Positions 1,411-64,000 of a stretch of DNA of 64,000 bases are shown here, one piece after another. Under the pieces are notes generated by a model. The model did not search any database. It saw only the letters and a program-made list of their open reading frames with translations, and was not told the origin of the DNA. Numbering within the stretch: the first letter of the stretch is position 1; every line of letters starts with the position of its first letter. This stretch comes from Perna viridis (Eukaryota), in assembly GCA_037379345.1 (NCBI GenBank), contig CM074517.1:29326001-29390000 (forward strand). Direction: 5' to 3'. A program made the translations under genes and the position numbers.

Positions 1411-1526
1411 TCACCTTCCTAGAAAGAGCAAAATTATATTCACATAAGACAGGTGGTCATATATACAGATCAATCTTAAAAAGAATATACAACTCAGGGA
1501 TATCTAAATAATAATCTTTACAGGAA

Positions 1527-3505
1527 TACAGGTAGTCACTACGACAAGTTGATGATAGCATAGGTAGTTAATAATACAAGTTGATGATAGTACAGGTAAT
1601 CACTAAGACAAGTTATGATAGTACAAGTAGTCACTAAGACAAGTTATGATAGTACAAGTAGTCACTAAGACAAGTTTATGATAATACAGGTAGTCACTAC
1701 GACAAGTTGATGATAGTACAGGTAGTCAATAATACAAGTTGATGATAGTACAGGTAATCACTAAGACAAGTTATGATAGTACAAGTAGTCACTAAGAAAA
1801 GTTTATGATAGTATAGGTAGTCACTGAGGCAATTTATGATAGTACAGGTAGTCACTGAGGCAATTTATGATAGTACAGGTAGTCACTATGACAAGTTGAT
1901 AATACAGGTAGTCACTACGACAATTTATGATAGTACAGGTAATCACTACGACAAGTTATGATAGTACAGGTAGTCATTACGATAAGTTGATGATACTATA
2001 GGTAGTTAATAATACAAGTTGATGATAGTACAGGTAATCACTAAGACAAGTTATGATAGTACAAGTAGTCACTAAGACAAGTTATGATAGTACAAGTAGT
2101 CACTAAGACAAGTTTATGATAATACAGGTAGTCACTATGACAAGTTGATGATAGTACAGGTAGTCAATATTACAAGTTGATGATAGTACAGGTAATCACT
2201 AAGACAAGTTATGATAGTACAAGTAGTCACTAAGACAACTTTATGATAGTACAGGTAGTCACTGAGGCAATTTATGATAGTACAGGTAGTCACTGAGGCA
2301 ATTTATGATAGTACAGGTAGTCACTATGACAAGTTGATAATACAGGTAGTCACTACAACAATTTATGATAGTACAGATAGTCACTATGACAAGTTTATGA
2401 CAGTACAGGTAGTCACTACCACAATTTGATGATAGTACAGGTAATCAGTACGACAAGTTATGATAGTACAGGTAGTCACTACAACAAGTTTATGAAAGTA
2501 CAGGTAGTCACTGCGACATGTATATGACAGTACAAGTAGTCACTAAGAATGGTTGATGATAACACAGGTAGTCACTACACCAAATTTATGACAGTACAGG
2601 TAGGCATTAAGACAAGTTTATGATAGTACAGGTAGTCACTAAGACAAGTTTATGACAGTACAGGTAGTCACTAAGACAAGTTTATGACAGTACATGTAGT
2701 CACTACAACCAGTTTATGATAGTACAGGTAGTCACTAAGACAAATTTATGATAGTACAGGTAGTCACTGAAACAATTAATGATAGTACAGGTAGTCAATA
2801 ATACAAGTTGATGATAGTACAGGTAGTCACTAGAACAAGTTTATGGTAGTACAGGTAGTCACTACGACATGTATATGACAGTACATGTAGTCACTACGAC
2901 AAATTTATGATAGTACAAATAGTCACTACAACCAGTTTATGACAGTACAGGTAGTCACTACGACAAGTTGATGAAAGTACAGGTAGTCACTAAGACAAGT
3001 TTATGATAGTACAGGTAGTCAATAATACAAGTTGATGATAGTACAGGTAATCACTAAGACAAGTTTATGATAGCACAGGTAGTCACTGAAACAATTTATG
3101 ATAGTACAGGTAGTCACTATGACAATTTATGATAGTACAGGTAGTCGCTATGACAATTTATGATAGTACAGGTAGTCACTATGACAAGTTTATGAAAGTA
3201 CAGGTAGTCACTAAGACAAGTTTATGATAGTACAGGTAGTTAATAATACAAGTTGGTGATAGTACAGGTAATCACTAAGATAAGTTATGATAGTACAGGT
3301 AATCACTAAGACAAGTTTATGATAGTACAGGTAGTCACTGAAACAATTTATGATAGTACAGATAGTCACTATGACAAGTTGATGATAATACAGGTAGTCA
3401 CTACGACAATTTATGATAGTACAGGCAGTCACTAGAACAAGTTTATGATAATACAGGTAGTCACTACGACATGTTTATGACAGTACAGGTAGTCACTATG
3501 ACAAG
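1527..3505. repeat. ~29-30 bp minisatellite array (consensus near GTACAGGTAGTCACTAAGACAAGTTTATGATA), ~2 kb, in DHX16 intron 8
   Basis: Direct inspection; roughly 65-70 monomers; a block at 1561 recurs at 1999. Confidence 0.97.
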
Positions 3506-4910: not shown

Positions 4911-5588
4911 CTAGAAATAGAATATGTTTATATAAAAGATTATTTTACATTTACAATTTTACACTAAAAAATCTAATGAAGGTAAGCAAGGACAAAATAA
5001 AAAATATTTTCCATAAAATCAGAATTTACAATTCTAGAAATAATAATAGAGGTTTTTTTGTATTTTTTTTTTTTGTGTATACCATGAAAACATGAAAGGA
5101 TTTGTATAATTAATATTTCTTTTACAAATATTTTTTTTTAACATTTAACATGTTATCATTTTAAGATCGCACATACATTTTTTGTACCATTAAAAACTTT
5201 ACACAAATAAATGCAATTAAAGCCAGTATTGAAACTACCTAAAATTTCCATAAATACATATCTTTATTATATGTACATGCATATAACTTTGGAGGGTTTT
5301 TAATGAACACTTTCCCTTTACTATTATATGTGCTAAACAGAGATGATATAAATATATTCTAGCTATAGGTAAGAGTTGATATTTTGAAGATACATGTATT
5401 TAAAAAAATGCCATAATAAAGTGAAACCGGTCTAAAGGCAACTTTTAAAATACAAAAAAATTCTGTCTAAACATGAATTTTTTTATTCCTTTCAAATTAC
5501 TTTAAACGTATATATGTACATGTATTTTTGAAAATTGGGTAATAAAACACACATCTAAACCAAATAAATTCAAAGGAGTTGGGTTTAG

Positions 5589-6089
5589 TTTGTTTTGTTT
5601 GTTTGTTGGGGTTTAATGCCCGAGCAGCAATATTTCAGCTATATTCAGGTGATGAACATGAAGTGGATGATAAAATGAACATGAAATGATGATGAATTGA
5701 AAAATGGGATGGGACACAAGGATAATGGGGTCAACAAATTTTGATTGCCACTGGAAAAAGGGGAAGTGGGTAGGGTCGGGCAATTTAGCCTCCTGTGGCG
5801 GAGCCCTATGGTTCCTACTCCGGGAGAATACCACAGTAGGGTTTTTTAACGTGCAAGGAACGGTGTACCACTATGGTTTGCGGTCAGGTTTTCCGTATTA
5901 TAGCCTGACAACCCCAGCATGTAACACACCAGGGGTACCTCATTCCACCACCTGGGCACACAACTCAGTTGCTCTGTGGGCAGAGCGCCCTAGTCCCCGG
6001 CAAAGGTTCTGAGCACTATTTAGTCGCCTTTTACGACAAGCTTAGTGCTGCTGCAGGCCTATTCTTTTGACACCTGAACCTGCACGGTC
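5589..6089 (-). mobile_element. SINE-like non-autonomous retroelement, family A, copy 1
   Basis: 13-bp TSD GAGTTGGGTTTAG (5576-5588, 6090-6102); (CAAA)n tail; highly similar to 15766-16365 and 63353-63750. Confidence 0.9.
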
Positions 6090-6201
6090 GAGTTGGGTTT
6101 AGAGATTTCACTGTATTATTCATGTGACATGCAGGTCAAATAGGAAATTGTATTTTGCTATTCATTACATGTCACTATAACAAACAATGAATCTATCATA
6201 C

Positions 6202-6780: not shown

Positions 6781-7277
6781 TGTTCATATCACAACACATA
6801 TGTTATGCCGGAGCTTGCCGAGACTACTCACACTTTTTGTATCGCACTAGAATTCTAACAAATAGGCTTTTGGTGCAGGGTTATGTTGTTACAAGATTGA
6901 AGTCATCACTACAAAAGTTTTATGGTCATCATCATGAACTCGTGGATCGCTACAGTGTATCCGTCTGTGCCATGAAAACTGATTTGTTCAATGTGTCATA
7001 GTTTTCCTTTCCTCTTTCGTCTACCCCAGACTTGACTTTTTATGAGCAACTTGGCAGGTGTTTCTAGAAAAGCAGAGGACTGTTACCCTACTGGAGCATC
7101 TGGTCCATGCTCCCAGTTTTTAGTGGAGTTCGAGTTGCTCATTTGCTTTTGTTACTTTGTATGTATCATTTTAGTTACTTATGTTCTTTGTTGTGTATGT
7201 CTGTTTCCATGTCTGGTCTTTGTCCCTGGATTACATTCTTTTGATTAAAGCTATAATCTTGGTTCCCTTGATTACTC
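6781..7277 (+). mobile_element. Penelope-like (Naiad-type) 3' fragment in DHX16 intron 5
   Basis: Colinear with ~59997-60495; same terminus TTCCCTTGATTACT. Confidence 0.85.
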
Positions 7278-7969
7278 TTAGCACAACACAATAAAAATGT
7301 CTGACCTGTATATAATTTTTCTATTATAATAAATTAAGGCCTTAAAATTAAAATGTCTGAGTTTAGGATAACCCCATACTTTATGCCTGTCTATGCAGAC
7401 TGTACTTTTCATAAAAAAAGAAACAAAAATCCAGACTTTTCTACCTGATGAATTTTCAAGTGTTATACTAAACACTCATATTTTTTGCCTTCAATAAATG
7501 CTATACATGTTTGCCATACAAAAAAATGCCTAGGTTCTCAGCCCACTTTTTAAAAAAAAATTGATGTGGGAGAGAGGTATTTTTTTTTGGGGGGGGGGAG
7601 AGAAATTTCATTGAATTGAACAATTATGTAAATGTAAAGAATGTTGAGAAGTAAAATACTCCATGGCATCAAAACTTTACTGGAATATGAGATGTGGCAA
7701 GAAATAAGAGCCATCTCTACACCAAAAGACAAACTTTCATTTTAAATGATCAATGTTAAATAACAGCCTCATTTGCATCATATTTTTCACCGTTGTTTTC
7801 GTGCAGATGATTCTGTTAACTAATTAAAAATCGATTAAGGACTGGATATGAAAATTTGTGGAACAAATATAAAATTTACGAATTTTATCGTAACAAAAAT
7901 GGCAGATACAGGAGGGTTTTAGGGATGCAGCGGCGCCTGAAAACTTAGCATATTTTTTTTTAGCCTTAC

Positions 7970-15320: not shown

Positions 15321-15765
15321 TAAGATCAAAAGTTTTCCCTTCCCTATAGGCTTGACCATAGGTCCACATCTTTAGAGAAATTAAAATGACTAGTAGGCGT
15401 AGTCATTTGTTGGTGCCATTGAAAACAAAATGTTTATAATTTAACCACAAAAACATTAAACAATATTTTAGAGCTTTTGGGAGTCGATCCATCACCCTTT
15501 AAAAAAAGTACAGCAAATTGGATTGCTTTTCCTTGTCAGATAAATACCGAGATCATTAAGACATTGTTGTATAAATTCAGGATTGTCTCCCCCCCCCCCT
15601 TCCGATCTTTTTCTAATTTGATTCAACTCTTGATACTTTTAATATTTTATGAAATAAAATGTTCTTAAATTTTATTCATTAAAAAATAGTAGAAATCATT
15701 CAGTGTATTTGAATCTTGTTGATTTTGCCAACAGTGATAATCGCAAATTTAATTGTTCCATGATT

Positions 15766-16365
15766 CCGGGTGTCAAAAGAATAGGCCTGCAGCAGCACTA
15801 AGCTTGTTGTAAAAGGCGACTAAATAGTGCTCAGAACCTTAGCCGGGGGCTAGGGCGCTCTGCCCACAGAGCAACTGGGTTGTGTGCCCCAGATGGTGGA
15901 ATGGGGTACCCCGGACGTGTTGCATGCTGGGGTTGTCAGGCTATAATACGGAAAACCTGACCGCAAACCATAGTGGTGCACCGTGTTGGGAAAGATGTCA
16001 CATTCCTCGCATGTTAAAGAACCCTGCTGTGGTCTTCGATAGGAGTAGGAACCCTTACAGTCCGCCACAGGAGGCTAAATTGCCCGACCTTACCCATCCC
16101 TCCTTATTTCTAGTGGCAATCAAAATTTGTCAATCTTATGATCCTTGTGTCCCATTCCTTTTTTCATTTCATCATCATTTCATGTTCATTTTATCATCCA
16201 TTTCATGTTCATCGTCTGAATATAGCTGAAATATTGCTGCTCGGACGTTAAACCCCAACAATCAATCAATCATTTTATCATCCACTTCATGTTCATGGCC
16301 TGAATATAGCTGAAATATTGCTGCTCGGGCGTTAAACCCCAATAAACAAACAAACAAACAAAACC
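15766..16365 (+). mobile_element. SINE-like family A, copy 2, with duplicated 3' end
   Basis: TSD GTTCCATGATT/GTTCCATTATT (15755, 16366); 3' ~80 nt present twice. Confidence 0.9.
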
Positions 16366-16423
16366 GTTCCATTATTTGTTTACACACGCGTTTCATTCCC
16401 TGACACATTAAACCCCCGGAAAT

Positions 16424-20699: not shown

Positions 20700-20920
20700 C
20701 TGAAAACAGACATGCACAACAAAGAACATAAAGTAACTAAAATCGTACATACAAAGTAACAAAAACAAATAAGCAACTCAGACTCCACTTAAAACTGAGA
20801 GCATGGACCAGGTGTATCGCTAGGGTAAGCATCCTCTGCTTTTCTAGAAACACCAACCAAGTTGCTCAAAAAAAAGAAGGAGGAAAGGAAAACTATGATA
20901 TGTTGAACAAATCAGTTTTC
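20700..20920 (-). mobile_element. Penelope-like 3' fragment, antisense
   Basis: Reverse complement matches ~60190-60425. Confidence 0.8.
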
Positions 20921-23900
20921 AGTTTTACATGGAGGTACGTGTATGACCAGAACATATTCAGAATGAAGCATTTTCTAGTTTACTAACAAAAACATGAGTA
21001 AAAGTGAATTGATCTCAATGAAGTTATACCAAAAAGGTGCCATGTGTACTACAAAAGGAAAGTTTTGATGGATTTAAAGGGTAACTGTCCTATTTTTAGG
21101 GCAATAACAGTCAAAAAGGGGTCAGATCTTCGTGTACATTTCTTATATCTTACAACTTATTCTACAGTTTTTAGATTACTTTCATCCTTATCAGAATCTC
21201 GGAAAACAATTTACCCCAATTTAAATTAAGAGCTGTGTATCAGGTTTGAATGTTGCATTCATACTCGTTCCAACTGCTTATCATACAAACTCTTTGGTCA
21301 TATCAGGCTGAACTTTTGAAGTATTTAATTGTACATGACTGTGTCTATCATGGGTAAAAAAGCAATACACAAGTTAAAAGTAGTCCAGTAAAGTTCTGAG
21401 GGTTAATGAATAAATAAAACTTTTTATATGCAGATCCACATCTTTGTCTGACATTGTATGTTAATATTATCAAATTATACAAAAACTGAAATATTAATTA
21501 TTATATAATGGAATTTTTGGGGTGATAACAGTTAATCACACAAAGTTAAGCAGCGCCCAGTAATACGACACATATTTTATACAAATGACTCTTTGACCTT
21601 GATTGTAATTGCACAACTTTTAGCTGTAAAACGGAAGAAACCTGTTCCTACCCTCGTCCTCTGTTGAAGATCTGGGAATTTTTCCACTTGTGGGAGAAAT
21701 TCTTTCCCTTTTCACTCATTCCTCTGCACTCCACTTGTCAAAAGACAGAATTTCTCACACTCGTGGCAGAAATCACAGATCATCAATAGATACTCATGTA
21801 AGAACATATTATTGTTTCATATACACTTGAATATTTTGAAATATCATTTCCAGGATTAATTGGCAAAAAGCCAACATCCCTTGCATACATGTACCGGTAT
21901 TCGTAACCCAACATCTGATTATAATCTTTCATTGTTCTTGGGGAAATCCTGACGGGTAATACAAGAAGTTGTTTAAAATTAATATTAACATGTACTTCAT
22001 GGTTTTTGCTGTGTAAATATTATTAGTAAGAAGTAAACTAAAGTAAGATGAATTGCTTTTATTGCTTTAGTTTAATTATGTTTTTTGGAGAAGTAAATTA
22101 GTGGATAAGATATTGTTTCTATTAATAGAAATATAGGTAAACTCTCTTTTTTTGGCTCAAGGTTTTGTTCATTTTAGACATATGTACTATTTCATGTAAA
22201 AATCATAAGGGTTAAATAAGTCATAAGTTATGATGTCACAATACTTTTTTTCCGACGCAGTCAGTGTAGTTTTGCTTTTTACCCTTAGACCTTAAAGGCA
22301 CTCTTCCATGGAAACACAAGTCACCTGCTCGCAATTCTGTTTCCCGATTGGCCAAATACCAATTATTTAGTGGCATTCGAAAAAACTGTATCGAAAATTA
22401 AAATTGGGTACCATGTGTAATTTCGGAATGAAATGTTGAAAATTATAAGTAATTGGAACAAATTTAATGCATGCGTCGACTATCTTTATTTTTAAAGATA
22501 GTACTTGTCTATTATGACATCTTAACTACCCGGTAATGACTAATTTTACACTCTTTTTTTTTCAGAAATTGGCCAGTCTTTTGATTAATTGAGAGTGATG
22601 CATATTAACTGCAGACCAAAAGAAGTCTGTTTTAACTTGCTTCTGATTTAGTCTGGGGTTTTAATGTATTCAGAATAAAATCCATTGTTACCTTCCAAGA
22701 TCAGTTTCTCTGTAGAGTGTTGTCTAACTAGAGTAAGTTTTTACCATGAGACATTTATAAATAAGTATACCCAGTAACTTTACTTTTAGGTTATTAGTAA
22801 TAAACAGATATTGATTTACTTTCAAGTCCTTCTCTGAAAAAAATAATCTAAAAGAGTATCTTCAGCCTGTACATCTCTGTCTGGCAATGCTTTATTGGTG
22901 ATATCATAGTTTTAAATGTATGTACTTCATGATAGCTTCATTTCAAAATTTAGATGGAAGTTATTAAATTTTTTTGCAAGGCTTTAGAATTGAGTATTTA
23001 CTGATTGAAAGTACATTGTTTTCACTTCGGTAACCTTTGTGATTATAAGGTAGCATGCTGGCTTTGAGTGTGGGAGGTTAGATCATACAAAAAACTAAAA
23101 TAGGTAGTCACTACTTTTCGTTATGACTGGTTGGATCTGAGCCAGCATAGTATATGAGTTTGAGTGGGTAGGAGGTGCAAAAATCAGTCAACGACTGTCA
23201 CCTCCAAGATGCTGACCTTTTCTCTGGCATATTTATCAGATTTTCATGAAATTAAGTGTCCTGTTAATGTAAGTCATACCTATTACTTAGTGCATACAAA
23301 CTAAATCTATCAGGAACAGACTAAATCATACTAAACATAAAGGAATAAGGCATTTTCATGTTTCATACAGGGGGTAGTCCAGGTTTTCAGGGAGGTGGAG
23401 AGGGGTCATGGGTCCAGTATGTTTGCCAATCAGGGGGCATTATTGAAAATCAAGATTTTGTGCCCAATGGAAATATCATACTTTTTCTGACATCAAAGGA
23501 AGTGTTCAGGACTTCATGGTTGACCTTATCCCTTTGAATATTGGCCTATGACCTAAGACAATGCATTGTCTATATCTTATTCTTCAATTTTATAGGAACA
23601 AATGCAAAACTTGGCTCAGAAAAAATGAAGATGTTCTATCTTTAGCTTGTATTATATATAGATTTGATCTATTAAGTATCTTAAACTTGATTAAAGTCAT
23701 GCTAAACTTAGTCAAATACACTACATTTATTTAAAAATAGTTCTAGAGACATTTTAAACAATTCAGGATATGATATAAAAGGATGTGTTTTGCCAAAGAC
23801 AAGTAGAATCGACAATTGATCTTTATCTTAAGCGAAAGTTGAATCTTAAAAGGAAAACCTGAATTTCACAATTGATTGAATAAATAGATTAATGCTTGTT

Positions 23901-41359: not shown

Positions 41360-41623
41360 TCTTTCCTCTTTTGCTACCCAGCACTTGACTTTTTATGAGT
41401 AACTTGGCAGTGTTTCTAGAAAAGCAGAGGACACTTACCCTGCTGTTGCACTTGGTTCAGTTTTTAGTGGAGTCCGAGTTTCTCATTTACTTTGTTACTT
41501 TGTACGTGTTATTTTGCTTACTTTATGTTCTCTGTTGTTTGTGTCTATTCTCCGTGTCTGGTCTTCGTCCCTGGATTACATTCTTTTGATTTCCGCTAGA
41601 ATCTTGGTTCCCTTGATTACTCT
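41360..41623 (+). mobile_element. Penelope-like 3' UTR fragment, apparently inside a TA-CTG MITE remnant
   Basis: Colinear with ~60222-60495; same terminus. Confidence 0.8.
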
Positions 41624-42385
41624 TACATATTGCTATTACTCTATTTTGTAGGTAAAATTTTTCAAGCTTTTCAGTCCACTGCAAAATTAGTACTCTGCAA
41701 AAATTAATATATTTAAAGTATCTCATCTTACTGGAATCATAACTGGTGAAAGCAGGTCTAGATACCATTTGACTTTATTTGTCTGTCTCTCTGTCGTGCT
41801 TAGGGGTTCCTACTTTGCTATTTAGTGTATTCTGTAACTCTGTAAGTATAGGGCTGCATAAGGTAGTGTTGCCGAGCTGAGCATTTTGAAATTGGATCAC
41901 CATTGACATGCATGTTAACCAAATTTAATGAAAATCTGACTCCACTTATATAGAAGAAGGCAAAACATAACCTAAGGCATGACTGAAGGACAACTTGACT
42001 GATAAATGCACTTACATATGTACTGGCATATTGTTTGCAGGTTCAATGAGAATAACAATTTGCCAACATTTGTGCTATCAAGTTGATAAATGTAATATTA
42101 TATAAAATGCTTATTCTGACTTGGCATTGACATCAATAAATATAGAAATGTTTTGAAGAGTAATAATAGAATGCCTGAAAAAAAACCTGCGAAAAAAACA
42201 CCATAGTGGTCTCAAGGATGCAATGCTTGCCTTGAGTGTTGGAGGTCGTGTTTAATCACCAGACTTGCCATAGTATCAGCAATACACTTAGAGTCAATTA
42301 AAAAGTCAGTGTTTGGAATTGCATACCTGTAAATGTTTATTATCAAAGACCTTCTATGTATATTTGAATTGCTTTACTTTGAAAG

Positions 42386-59764: not shown

Positions 59765-60498
59765 GATGACGTATTATCTTTAAACAATCATAACATCGGG
59801 TATTTGATACATTGCTTCTACCCCAAAGAACTTGAGATAAAGGATACTACAGACACTGTGAAGTCAGCCTAATATCTTGATCTTGGTAAAAGAAAACTAT
59901 TGACCAAACTTTACGACAAACGTGATGACTTTTCATTCAAAATTGTCAACTTTCCTTTCATCTGTGGCAACATCACTTTAGCACCTGCGTATGGAGTGTT
60001 CATATCACAACACATACGTTACGCCAGAGCTTGCCGAAACTGCGCAGACTTTTTGTATCGCGCTAGAACTCTAATAAATAGGCTTCTGGAGCAGGGTTGT
60101 GTTGCTACAAGATTGAAGTCATCACTACAAAATTTTTATGGTCGTCATCATGAACTCGTGTATCGTTATGGTGTATCTATCTGCACCGTGAAAACTGATT
60201 TATTCAACGGGTCATAGTTTTCCTTTCCTCGTTTGTCTACCCCGGACTTGACTTTTTATGAGCAACTCGGCGGGTGTTTCTAAACAAGCAGAGGACGCTT
60301 GCCCTACCGGTGCACCTGGTCCATGCTCCCAGGTTTTAGTGGAGTTCGAGTTGCTCATTTGCTTTTGTTACTTTGTATGTATGGTTTTCATTACTTTGTG
60401 TTCTTTGTTGTGTATGTCTGTTTTCCATGTCTGGTCTTTGTCCCTGGATTGCATTCTGTTGATCATCGCTATAACCTTGGTTCCCTTGATTACTTTTT
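59765..60498 (+). mobile_element. 5'-truncated Penelope-like retroelement, Naiad-type (RT C-terminus plus 3' UTR)
   Basis: One frame from 59765 reads DDVLSLNN...YPKELEIKDTTD...SA*YLDL...KLYDKRDDF...PAYGVFISQ..RYARAC...FYGRHHELV, ending with no C-terminal GIY-YIG domain; 8-bp TSD AACATGAA (59757-59764, 60499-60506). Confidence 0.85.
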
Positions 60499-61053: not shown

Positions 61054-63352
61054 ATGAAATAATCCTTATAATTAGGACTACAAAAGCTAGTCTCAATTTT
61101 GACGAAGTTGTATGACGACTCTTGGTTAGAGTAACTGTCCTTAAATGGGGAAAATGTCGGTTTTTTTTGCAGTTTAGACAATAATAGATAGACAGTTGAC
61201 GAATTGCTTCTTTGGACTTGTGTAGGCAAAAGTCTGCATTGGTTGTAGGATACATTGATTTTGAATCTTTTTGTTGAAACTTGATAATAAACCTTATTGT
61301 AACCAGAGCGCTGCACGACCACCTGAAACTACTCGACTGAAATCTGAATACAGGGGCTTGCTCATAGTTGGGCTGCATATTTGATAGCAGGCGCAAGCCC
61401 ATGTGATTAGCCTTACAAAATATTCACCTGAGTTGTGGTATGTAAAGACTCCTGTGATGAGTTACTGTGCCCTTGAAAGGTATGAAATAGCTATTTTTGC
61501 ATTTTTAGACCTGTGCATTTCAGTTACTGGAATTCTTTTTAATACATATTTCATAAGACGAAGAAATTAGCTCCAGATACGCGATGCGGAATTTTAGTAG
61601 TCATATACAGGACTAATTCCACCATCCTTGACATGCGCGTTTACGACCAAGCTGCAATATTTGACGTCCGTTATCGATCTGTTCACGATTATTTCTCTCA
61701 CTAGAAATTAACGGGAATAAATATATCGATTCCATATTAATCGTAGTTGGAAAACTGTTTATAGTACAATTGATAAAATGCTACAATACTGTTGTACTCC
61801 TAAATATTACCACTATATGGGCTCAATAGTCCATCTTAGTGTAGGGCAATTAAAATGTGTAGTTATCAAAAGCTTGCAAAGGCTCGTAATTTTACTTTTC
61901 CTTGAAGGTCATTTCGCTTGAAGACTTAGTTCACTTTTAACGTCACAGAGTTACTACCGACAACGCCGCCGTCGTTTCCCATCCGTCAGCACAGACAGAC
62001 GTGTATTTCTGCGCTCAAGCATTTATCGACTTCTAACGTCCATAGAATATTGAATTTAGTTCGGGATTCGGGTGAGAATTTGGTTAGGTTATTGTTTATC
62101 AGCAAAACGATAATTGATCTTTGATTGTTCTGTCTTTTCAAATAATTGTTATATATTTTCATTATAGTTGTATCGAATGCTAAATGGACCTAATAATTAT
62201 CAAAGTTAACAACGCACGAAAAAAGTGATATAGCCGGAGACATGAGCATACTATCGGTAGTGCTTTGAAATTGCATTTCGTTCCTACCAAACGCTTCTTA
62301 AACATACTACTTGTTTCTTGTTGGCAGTTTCAGAAATGATACGAACAGGGAGACAAAGGAGGAGTTTCAATATCATAAGAAGAGGTCCACTGTTTGCGAA
62401 TGAATTCCACTACTCATTAGATGCTTGGCAATTATCTAGGGATGCCATGTTGGAGGCCAGGCATAAGAAACAAGGAAAAGTTGGTAAAAAAGGTAAGAGA
62501 TGAAGTAGTTCAGTGTATGAAAATGAGAAATGAAAAAAAAACAGTGTTTATCCTTCTGTTCCAAGACAATTCTTGTTTTTGAGTTTTCCATCATTGCCCA
62601 AGATTTTGCAATTTATCTTCACGCTGATGTTGTAATTTTGAGAAATATAACAATATTTGCATTTATACATGTAGCAGAGAAGAATCATTCAAGTTTTCGG
62701 AGTTACTCTCACAAGAGGGGCCAATCATCACTATTTCCACAGTGGCTTTCATCGTTCATGAGTCCATAAAATAAACTACTGGTTATTCAGAAATTTTTGC
62801 GGTGTTTTTATTAATGCAAAACAAAAAAATGCAGTGGCTTGACGATCTCGCATTCTACCCGAGTGTCGTTGATTTATTTTTCTTTGACAATTCTTAGGGC
62901 ACCGCTAAGTGCAATTTTACAACGATTTCAAATACCGTTACAATATTTACTGCAAACACGGAAAATTCGTGATTTTGTATTCTTCAAAGTTGCAAATCCT
63001 GAAAATAAATGCAAGCGAAAATTATTTGTGTTTTTCATTTCACAGGTAATTTATGTTTTACTATCGCTATTACTATTGAATATTCACTTTCAGCAAAAAA
63101 TGATTCTATCACAAACGATGGAAGAAAAGAATTTGAAGCTCCAAAGAATGACTCGATACACGAGGTTTGTACAGAAATGTTTGCTTCTTAAGTACTAGTA
63201 AGCGAGGTATTGCCGTAAATTGAAAAGTGCAAAGCATATTTGTTTAACGTTTGTAGTGACTCGAATGTTAACATATATTAAATCATGTCCACGCAGCGGC
63301 AGACCTCCGTTCCCGTTTCGGCGCCAGCATTAGTATTTCTCCTACTTCGAAA

Positions 63353-63750
63353 TACCCGTGCAGGTCCGGGTGTCAAAAGAATGGGTCTGCAGCATGCTGG
63401 GGTGATCAGGCTATAATATGGAAAACCTGACCGCAAACCATAGTGGTGCACCGTGTTGGGAAAGATGCCACGTTCCTCGCACGTTAAAAAAAAAAAACCT
63501 ACTGTGGCATTCTCCCGGAGTAGGAACCATAGGGCTCCGCCACAGGAGGCTAAATTGCTCGACCCTACCCACCTCTCCCTATTTCCAATGGCAATCAAAA
63601 TTTGTCGACCCCATTATCCTTGTGTCCCATCCCATTTTTCATTTCATCATCATTTCATGTTCATTTTATCATCTACTTCATGTTCATCGCCTGAATGTAG
63701 CTGAAATATTGCTGCTCGGGTGCTAAACCCAAACAAACAAACAAAACAAA
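63353..63750 (+). mobile_element. SINE-like family A, copy 3, with internal deletion
   Basis: 12-bp TSD CCTACTTCGAAA (63341-63352, 63751-63762); (CAAA)n tail. Confidence 0.9.
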
Positions 63751-64000
63751 CCTACTTCGAAAAGTGGTAGTGGGTGTCCGTCCTTCCATACGCAGAGATG
63801 TACCATGCCTTCATCGGTCACTCCTCATACTCTGCCGAATGGAGTTTAATGAAACTTGTTTTTAACTACCAGATGTATGTACTATAGGCATCTGTCTAAG
63901 CAAAATTCTTAATTACAGGACTTTTGTCTGTCATGAATAATGTTCCAGTATTCTTTGCCAGGGCCAGATCAAGACACTTTGAAAAGGGGGTGCCAGTCGA

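Follow-up and report, generated by a model that had tools for sequence, protein, structure and literature searches.

The SINE copies found at this locus of Perna viridis raise the question that was posed in 2016 for the LP-SINEs, namely what job is done by their head and how a SINE is expressed without a Pol III promoter. The window, the whole stretch of 64,000 nucleotides that was analysed, holds three copies of one SINE family, each bounded, as a preliminary description had reported, by target-site duplications (TSDs), here of 13, 7 and 12 bp. The features, with stems named as in the fold given further below, are as follows.

5589..6089, − strand: full-length LP-type SINE copy, from its start at G6089 to a (CAAA)n end
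6090..6102, − strand: 5′ TSD of this copy, 13 bp, with its partner at 5576-5588
5589..5648, − strand: SINE 3′ tail, similar by eye to the 3′ end of a Nimb/I-type LINE (L358), followed by CAAA repeats
15762..16365, + strand: second SINE copy, 5′-truncated, without the 5′ strands of S1 and S2, and with a duplicated 3′ tail
63353..63750, + strand: third SINE copy, with the exact 5′ start and an internal deletion that takes out S4 and S5

The second copy is flanked by its 7-bp TSD at 15755-15761 and 16366-16372, and the third by its 12-bp TSD at 63341-63352 and 63751-63762. Two copies had been considered 5′-complete; only the one read from 6089 to 5589 (−) retains the whole head, the second being truncated and the third internally deleted. 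Comparison of the tail with the L358 LINE by blastn gave just a weak nearby match (E 0.4). The earlier view that the element lacks tRNA A and B boxes held for tRNA genes (0 in the element by ARAGORN) and for the B box, which is absent from the SINE copies, and needs amending for the A box, to which a lone weak match was located at +144 of one copy. No Rfam family was found in the window at the gathering score, and matches near the head were at chance level. The SINE body carries GCACGTTAAA at 5830-5860 (−), a stretch similar to the 3′ portion of the Nin domain as shown in the supplement of the 2016 study, and in this it agrees with oyster LP-SINEs. Elsewhere in the window, positions 1525-3505 form a tandem array of ~2 kb with a unit of ~31-32 bp, and another interspersed repeat family of ~500 bp is represented at 6781-7280, 20701-20921, 41361-41625 and 59997-60497.

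A 23-base core of the head has 7,191 exact matches in the genome, against none for the reversed control, and elements of the family, ~500 bp long, open with the head. The 5′ boundary was studied in 41 copies selected for carrying the head, 27 of which have a TSD at the cut-off of at least 9 bp. Nineteen of these 27 TSD-bounded copies start exactly five bases 5′ of GTG and 3 more start at four bases, while G occupies the start position in 31 of the 41. The tails in this sample are CAAA or CAAT and the TSDs are variable. Three SINE families from metagenomes have a purine at the same boundary distance (16/21, 3/4 and 8/8 copies). Within the family, variation did not suffice for counting covariation, with 52 of the 57 copies belonging to a single type. 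SINE copies form clusters, are inserted head-to-head, and also lie in or near copies of Nimb LINEs (L005, L060, L390, L391). A start fixed at a purine is explained equally well by a transcription start, and it is among the points in favour of the role put forward for LP-SINEs, in which the head would act as a promoter at the DNA level inside the element and the RNA fold would be incidental.

By sequence comparison the head is that of the LP-SINEs of Matetovici 2016 (PMC4758252), so its sequence was known and the present element is a new one within a described group. According to the available text of that study, LP-SINEs occur in snails, abalone, oysters, scallops and medfly, and their ~70-bp head is common to the LINEs Nimb-17_LMi, I-3_DR and RTE-9_CPB; the head was put forward as a promoter, and experiments were called for. 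Its supplementary figures S2 and S7 contain heads with the same core and layout as here, judging by eye, and, again by eye, the printed scallop heads fit stems S1 to S5 apart from a single bulge in S5. Together with the SINE heads from metagenomes, they bear out the statement in the preliminary description of a similar motif in other invertebrates. The description had also named a match to a described LINE 5′ UTR head as a finding that would speak against it; there is such a match, namely the LP-SINE/Nimb-17 head in the available part of PMC4758252. The family agrees with the LP-SINEs shown there in having a non-tRNA head of ~70 bp at the exact 5′ end, TSDs, a tandem-repeat tail and a LINE origin, and differs from them in its body. 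Here, too, the 5′ end has no tRNA or 5S head, the TSDs vary in length, the 3′ end is a tandem repeat, and the head is LINE-derived as judged against the printed heads and against the one that opens an intact Nimb/I-type LINE. Within what is available of PMC4758252, the promoter proposal draws on the head standing in for the tRNA heads of oyster SINEs and being shared with LINEs at their 5′ ends only, and the trypanosome Pr77 element, described there as both promoter and ribozyme, indicates that a promoter could coexist with an RNA role. In scallops, on the other hand, the head has been added ahead of a tRNA-derived region (PMC4758252, available text), which does not favour a promoter.

The available text of the 2016 paper gives neither an RNA structure nor viral copies of the head. 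A search by name found, besides the paper, two passing mentions and no follow-up, motif strings had no match in the main texts of the literature, and a search by topic, in the text of the sources to hand, found no description of the fold or of viral copies. Kojima 2018 (PMC5786205) treats LINE-derived parts of SINEs without this head (supplement search, 0 hits), LP-SINEs go unmentioned in the available text of Martelossi 2024 (PMC11481361), and none of the motifs of Eckert 2023 (PMC10085705), bar one, is reported in its available text from known genomes. The five-stem fold and the viral occurrence were thus not found in print, while the head sequence has been known since 2016.

Beyond the LP-SINEs, the head (L221/L358) opens an intact LINE whose ORF1 has a zinc knuckle and whose ORF2 encodes endonuclease, reverse transcriptase and RNase H, and which we take to be of Nimb/I type from its domain order and by way of the 2016 paper. 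This LINE, with both ORFs (L358:912-7040, G001:C4), lies inside a 537-kb scaffold of a Solemya velum gill symbiont and is likely host DNA assembled into the bacterial scaffold, although it may be a transfer into the bacterial genome. A LINE carrying the head was not found in the P. viridis genome, where all 23 off-family pattern matches proved to be SINE variants and the 2 pattern matches at 30 Nimb loci were both separate SINE insertions; one may be hidden among the 7,191 matches. The abundant Nimb-type LINE of this genome is related to that of L358 (ORF1 ~43% identical; a downstream block of the 5′ UTR 62% identical over 210 columns, E 4.9e-7) and in 25 of the 30 loci opens with a different structured head. 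In that head a terminal stem of 7 bp is accompanied by a loop of HDV-like appearance, an identity for which neither Rfam, with chance-level matches only, nor a strand-order descriptor gave support. The partner LINE of the SINE is unmatched among the Nimb LINEs of its own genome because their tail differs from that of the SINE. These LINEs include a young family with many open ORFs and a sharp 5′ start, clustered on C15, C3 and C8 (L389:701-7290, L359-L388), and the copy at L389 sits inside a tandem repeat of ~600 bp with an 11-bp TSD.

The first 78 bases of the full-length SINE copy, its head, are predicted to form a doubly knotted RNA with the strand order S1-U-S2-S1′-..AGAAUA-S2′-S3-S4-S3′-U-S5-UAA-S4′, made up of the following parts.

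6074..6087, − strand: pseudoknot 1, predicted stem S1, 6087-6085 with 6076-6074; loop L1 is U6084
6053..6083, − strand: pseudoknot 1, predicted 7-bp stem S2, 6083-6077 with 6059-6053; two-sided change at 7/7 pairs
6039..6052, − strand: pseudoknot 2, predicted stem S3, 6052-6050 with 6041-6039; two-sided change at 3/3 pairs
6012..6049, − strand: pseudoknot 2, predicted stem S4, 6049-6043 with 6018-6012; at least 4 bp in 13/21 homologues
6020..6038, − strand: near-invariant core, with U6038, hairpin S5 (GUCG-UAARAGG-CGAC, 6037-6023) and UAA (6022-6020)

A conserved AGAAUA (6065-6060) lies immediately 5′ of the 3′ strand of S2. The two long stems and the GTCG/CGAC hairpin of the preliminary description reappear here as S2, S4 and S5, and its CCCG/CGGG pairing as S1, which in the 6089 copy has one C-A mismatch. 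Most copies have CCCG/CGGG, and a double change of G-C to C-G (CCG/CGG to CCC/GGG) occurs in L032, L220 and L261. A further pairing of AAAGG with CCTTT did not prove to be conserved, CCTTT being present in 2 of 56 copies. The earlier fold had overlooked S3, 3-4 bp long, the addition of which makes the second half of the head a pseudoknot. Another candidate stem, GCYU/AGGC, was considered by eye and dropped, as its partner strands are not conserved.

The fold was assessed on an alignment of 21 representatives, chosen by eye at one per family or virus copy; they favour a pair of stacked pseudoknots with an invariant hairpin between their strands. Paired cells amounted to 87.6% versus 69.4% after shuffling, and the covariation score, carried by S2 and S3, was 0.499 versus 0.183 ± 0.023 for shuffled and at most 0.136 for slid controls; shuffle counts on these 21 rows, hand-picked and partly related, are not probabilities. 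RNAalifold recovered S2, S5 and S3 from the same homologues. Pseudoknot 1 (S1 plus S2, by a fixed rule) was better than shuffles, at a fraction of no more than 0.033, in 16 of the 21, and five failed the strict rule (L261b, L218, L221, L113, L187). S3 is present with 3-4 bp in 20/21, and S3 and S4 together were better than shuffles at 0.05 in 13/21. The four pairs of S5 never vary and so lend no covariation support; the search patterns had fixed most of them, and relaxed viral scans revealed no compensated variant. A single change is seen within UAA, to CAA in L261, where the pattern C-N-A-A is kept. Since a single head folds barely better than its shuffles (z −1.67; 9 of 200 equally good), the structural evidence is comparative rather than thermodynamic. 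The preliminary description had asked for covariation, which is seen in S2 and S3, and compensatory changes there would not be expected of a promoter.

Homologues were also collected outside this genome. A scan of metagenomes gave at least 122 stretches, mostly SINE-like heads from a few families of invertebrate type; 50 of the 122 matches listed passed an automatic pseudoknot rule, many others being without the 5′ part. Five of 7 matches in prokaryote genomes show the full layout and have the appearance of repeats from animals, present in bins or scaffolds, rather than of bacterial genes. Four loci in contigs of bacterial MAGs (L216, L218, L217, L220) carry a head-bearing SINE or repeat of animal type, some beside microsatellites near contig ends, and are likely contamination. 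At L220:2550-2590 the block after the head is presumably of the RTE 5′ UTR type, which fits the case reported for RTE-9_CPB. A phage collection contained no match to the module.

Viral copies were identified with a pattern for the hairpin only, which demanded neither AGAATA nor an upstream pseudoknot. Nine viral loci matched, of which 7 have AGAATA together with complementary upstream stems and 2 have neither. Relaxed scans added one virus (L261, the same as L445) with two variant copies, the remainder being chance-like. The module is present on the coding strand of 7 contigs from 6 RNA viruses, 6-123 nt 3′ of the last stop codon, and is repeated in tandem in L073 and L445. No ORF follows it, and its distance to the end of the contig is 89-183 nt. 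Pfam identified RdRP_3 in L084, L087 and L445, RdRP_4 in L078, a Peptidase_A21 capsid in L075 and L086 and an S-domain coat in L073 and L445; noda-type, tetra-type and S-domain capsids are represented. L073 has no RdRp match by Pfam and is assigned to the RNA viruses from its coat protein. In a 212-kb DNA virus record the module lies between ORFs, 215 nt upstream of an ATG. The base at the boundary position varies among the viruses (purine in 3/7), and at the 7 viral loci Rfam gave nothing above chance-level matches.

The position on the sense strand after the last stop codon of RNA viruses argues for a function at the RNA level. As judged from these comparisons, the head is a structured element conserved from molluscs to RNA viruses. 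In support of a functional RNA without fit to any known ribozyme consensus, as proposed in the preliminary description, stand the covariation, the occurrence in RNA viruses and the lack of any match in Rfam or to ribozyme core motifs. A promoter would be useless in the 3′ UTR of an RNA virus, and for the head as a whole we regard a promoter whose fold is incidental as improbable; more likely the head fixes or shields RNA 5′ ends than serves solely as a DNA promoter.

The head may instead bind a translation factor or the ribosome: it would be a 3′ cap-independent enhancer in uncapped viruses, an aid to translation in LINEs, and in SINE RNA a means of docking near newly made ORF2 protein. Tombus-like viruses use 3′ translation enhancers, and Alu RNA docks near ORF2 protein via SRP9/14. 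Four of the six RNA viruses are tombus-like by Pfam, the invariant hairpin loop is a candidate binding site, and the module precedes an ATG in the DNA virus and also stands in a LINE 5′ UTR. Such a role would leave the position at the exact first base of SINEs and LINEs unexplained, and the head has no likeness to the enhancer families in Rfam; we consider it unlikely. A translational or ribosome-binding role and a pure promoter each leave half of the data unexplained.

The retroelement boundary and the viral position are both accounted for if the head represents a new type of exoribonuclease-resistant RNA (xrRNA) that sets and protects the 5′ end of the element, a reading that we prefer tentatively, at slightly under even odds. 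Xrn1 or Xrn2 would trim a read-through or decapped SINE or LINE transcript and stall 1-2 nt 5′ of S1; the product would be a stable, unit-length template, which the ORF2 protein of a Nimb/I-type LINE would copy from its 3′ tail. A viral RNA with this block would be reduced to a 3′ fragment of 90-180 nt, as happens with known xrRNAs. An exoribonuclease block would explain both the 5′ boundary of the retroelements and the start in viral 3′ UTRs while leaving the viral genome undamaged. It is further suggested by the tandem viral copies, since tandem xrRNAs occur in flaviviruses (PMC13556198, PMC13001430), and by the fixed 5′ boundary, since in the available text of PMC12397905 class 3 xrRNAs stop Xrn1 at the base of the first helix. 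The covariation of S2 and S3, the unrequested upstream pseudoknot in 7 of the 9 viral matches, and the head opening the L358 LINE, with a different structured head in the related LINE of P. viridis, also point to a block. A stable 5′ fold of R2, whether cleaving or not, is described in the available part of PMC11331408 as aiding template use. Against this reading, a simple H-type pseudoknot, as modelled here, can exist without the ring by which xrRNAs are defined. Also against it count the five homologues that fail the strict rule for pseudoknot 1, the pass of just 50 out of 122 metagenome matches, the hand-picked and partly related rows of the alignment, the missing RdRp match of L073, and the outcome that no LINE bearing the head turned up in this genome.

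The features that suggest a block are in part those of a self-cleaving ribozyme. Many invariant nucleotides, pseudoknots and a size of 50-80 nt are named as marks of such ribozymes in the available text of PMC10085705, and the head has ~25 near-invariant nucleotides, two pseudoknots and a fitting size, which also count as ribozyme marks against an exoribonuclease block. A new ribozyme class would cut 1-2 nt 5′ of S1 and so free the element from read-through transcripts, producing a sharp 5′ boundary as observed, and 5′ ribozymes are given for six LINE clades in the available text of PMC5786205. The head occupies the place of the different head in the sister Nimb LINE. That head resembles an HDV-like ribozyme in appearance, and the invariant YUGUCGU and the C-UAA before S4 are reminiscent of strands L3 and J4/2 in ribozymes of this type, so that the active site may be a rearranged one of HDV type; the UAA-to-CAA change of L261 retains C-N-A-A. 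On the other side, the HDV strand order is not matched, by a descriptor of limited sensitivity, and viral copies show no conserved base where the cut would fall. Ribozymes of linear RNA viruses are found mainly in 5′ UTRs according to the available text of PMC13725137, whereas every RNA-virus copy of the module is 3′, where a cut would strip the genome of its end. We hold self-cleavage to be possible and on the doubtful side, and the variable boundary base and the cost of a cut to a linear virus favour an exoribonuclease block over it. Separately, a cut where the 7-bp stem S2 begins was rejected, as copies retain the preceding bases, and a pistol-like reading was considered by eye and dropped, as its partner strands are not conserved.

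Taken together, we think it somewhat probable that the LP head is a new class of RNA machine for 5′ ends, be it the fourth class of xrRNA or a self-cleaving ribozyme of a new kind. On this reading it would have travelled among LINEs and SINEs of animals, several unrelated RNA viruses and a large DNA virus, and would enable retrotransposons without a promoter to carve templates from host transcripts. Given the five-stem model and the viral copies, the question of 2016 comes down to a short bench test. Should it block Xrn1, the head would be an xrRNA with a new fold, carried by cellular retrotransposons; should it cleave, it would be a new ribozyme class. Either outcome, if true, would provide a compact 5′-protecting part for RNA templates and a case of a functional RNA module exchanged between transposons and viruses.

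Among known systems, the HDV-like ribozymes at LINE 5′ ends (R2, RTE, and Pr77 of Ingi/L1Tc) share with the head a place at the very 5′ base of non-LTR elements. A double pseudoknot, a 7-bp helix and a CUAA strand preceding the final stem are further features in common; unlike those ribozymes, the head has no P3/L3 nested in P1, and its 7-bp helix lies away from the 5′ end. A descriptor of the HDV order P1-P2-P3-L3-P3′-P1′-P1.1-P4-J4/2-P2′ gave 0 matches in 17 of the 21 homologues and scattered, inconsistent ones in 4, and its sensitivity is limited, as it also missed the presumed HDV-like LINE head. Pairs of core motifs of the hammerhead, twister, pistol, hairpin and hatchet ribozymes were found in 0/21 homologues for each class. 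As to class 1 and 2 flavivirus xrRNAs, the head shows no three-way junction and no Rfam match, its covarying stems forming two serial pseudoknots. Class 3 xrRNAs are built on a P1-P2 stem-loop with T-loop L2B and an AGY anchor; their loop motif is absent from 21/21 homologues and the topology differs. Class 3 xrRNAs of Tombusviridae and Solemoviridae (PMC12397905, available text) are likewise small pseudoknotted modules in viral UTRs, whereas the head is without a T-loop L2B, J1/2 docking or the AGY arrangement. The coremin motif, too, is a conserved module across unrelated virus families, xrRNA motifs being distributed over unrelated viruses in the available text of PMC10520033, although the head homologues contain no coremin sequence. 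Relative to the known viral xrRNAs, the head combines two pseudoknots with a hairpin and occurs in animal retrotransposons.
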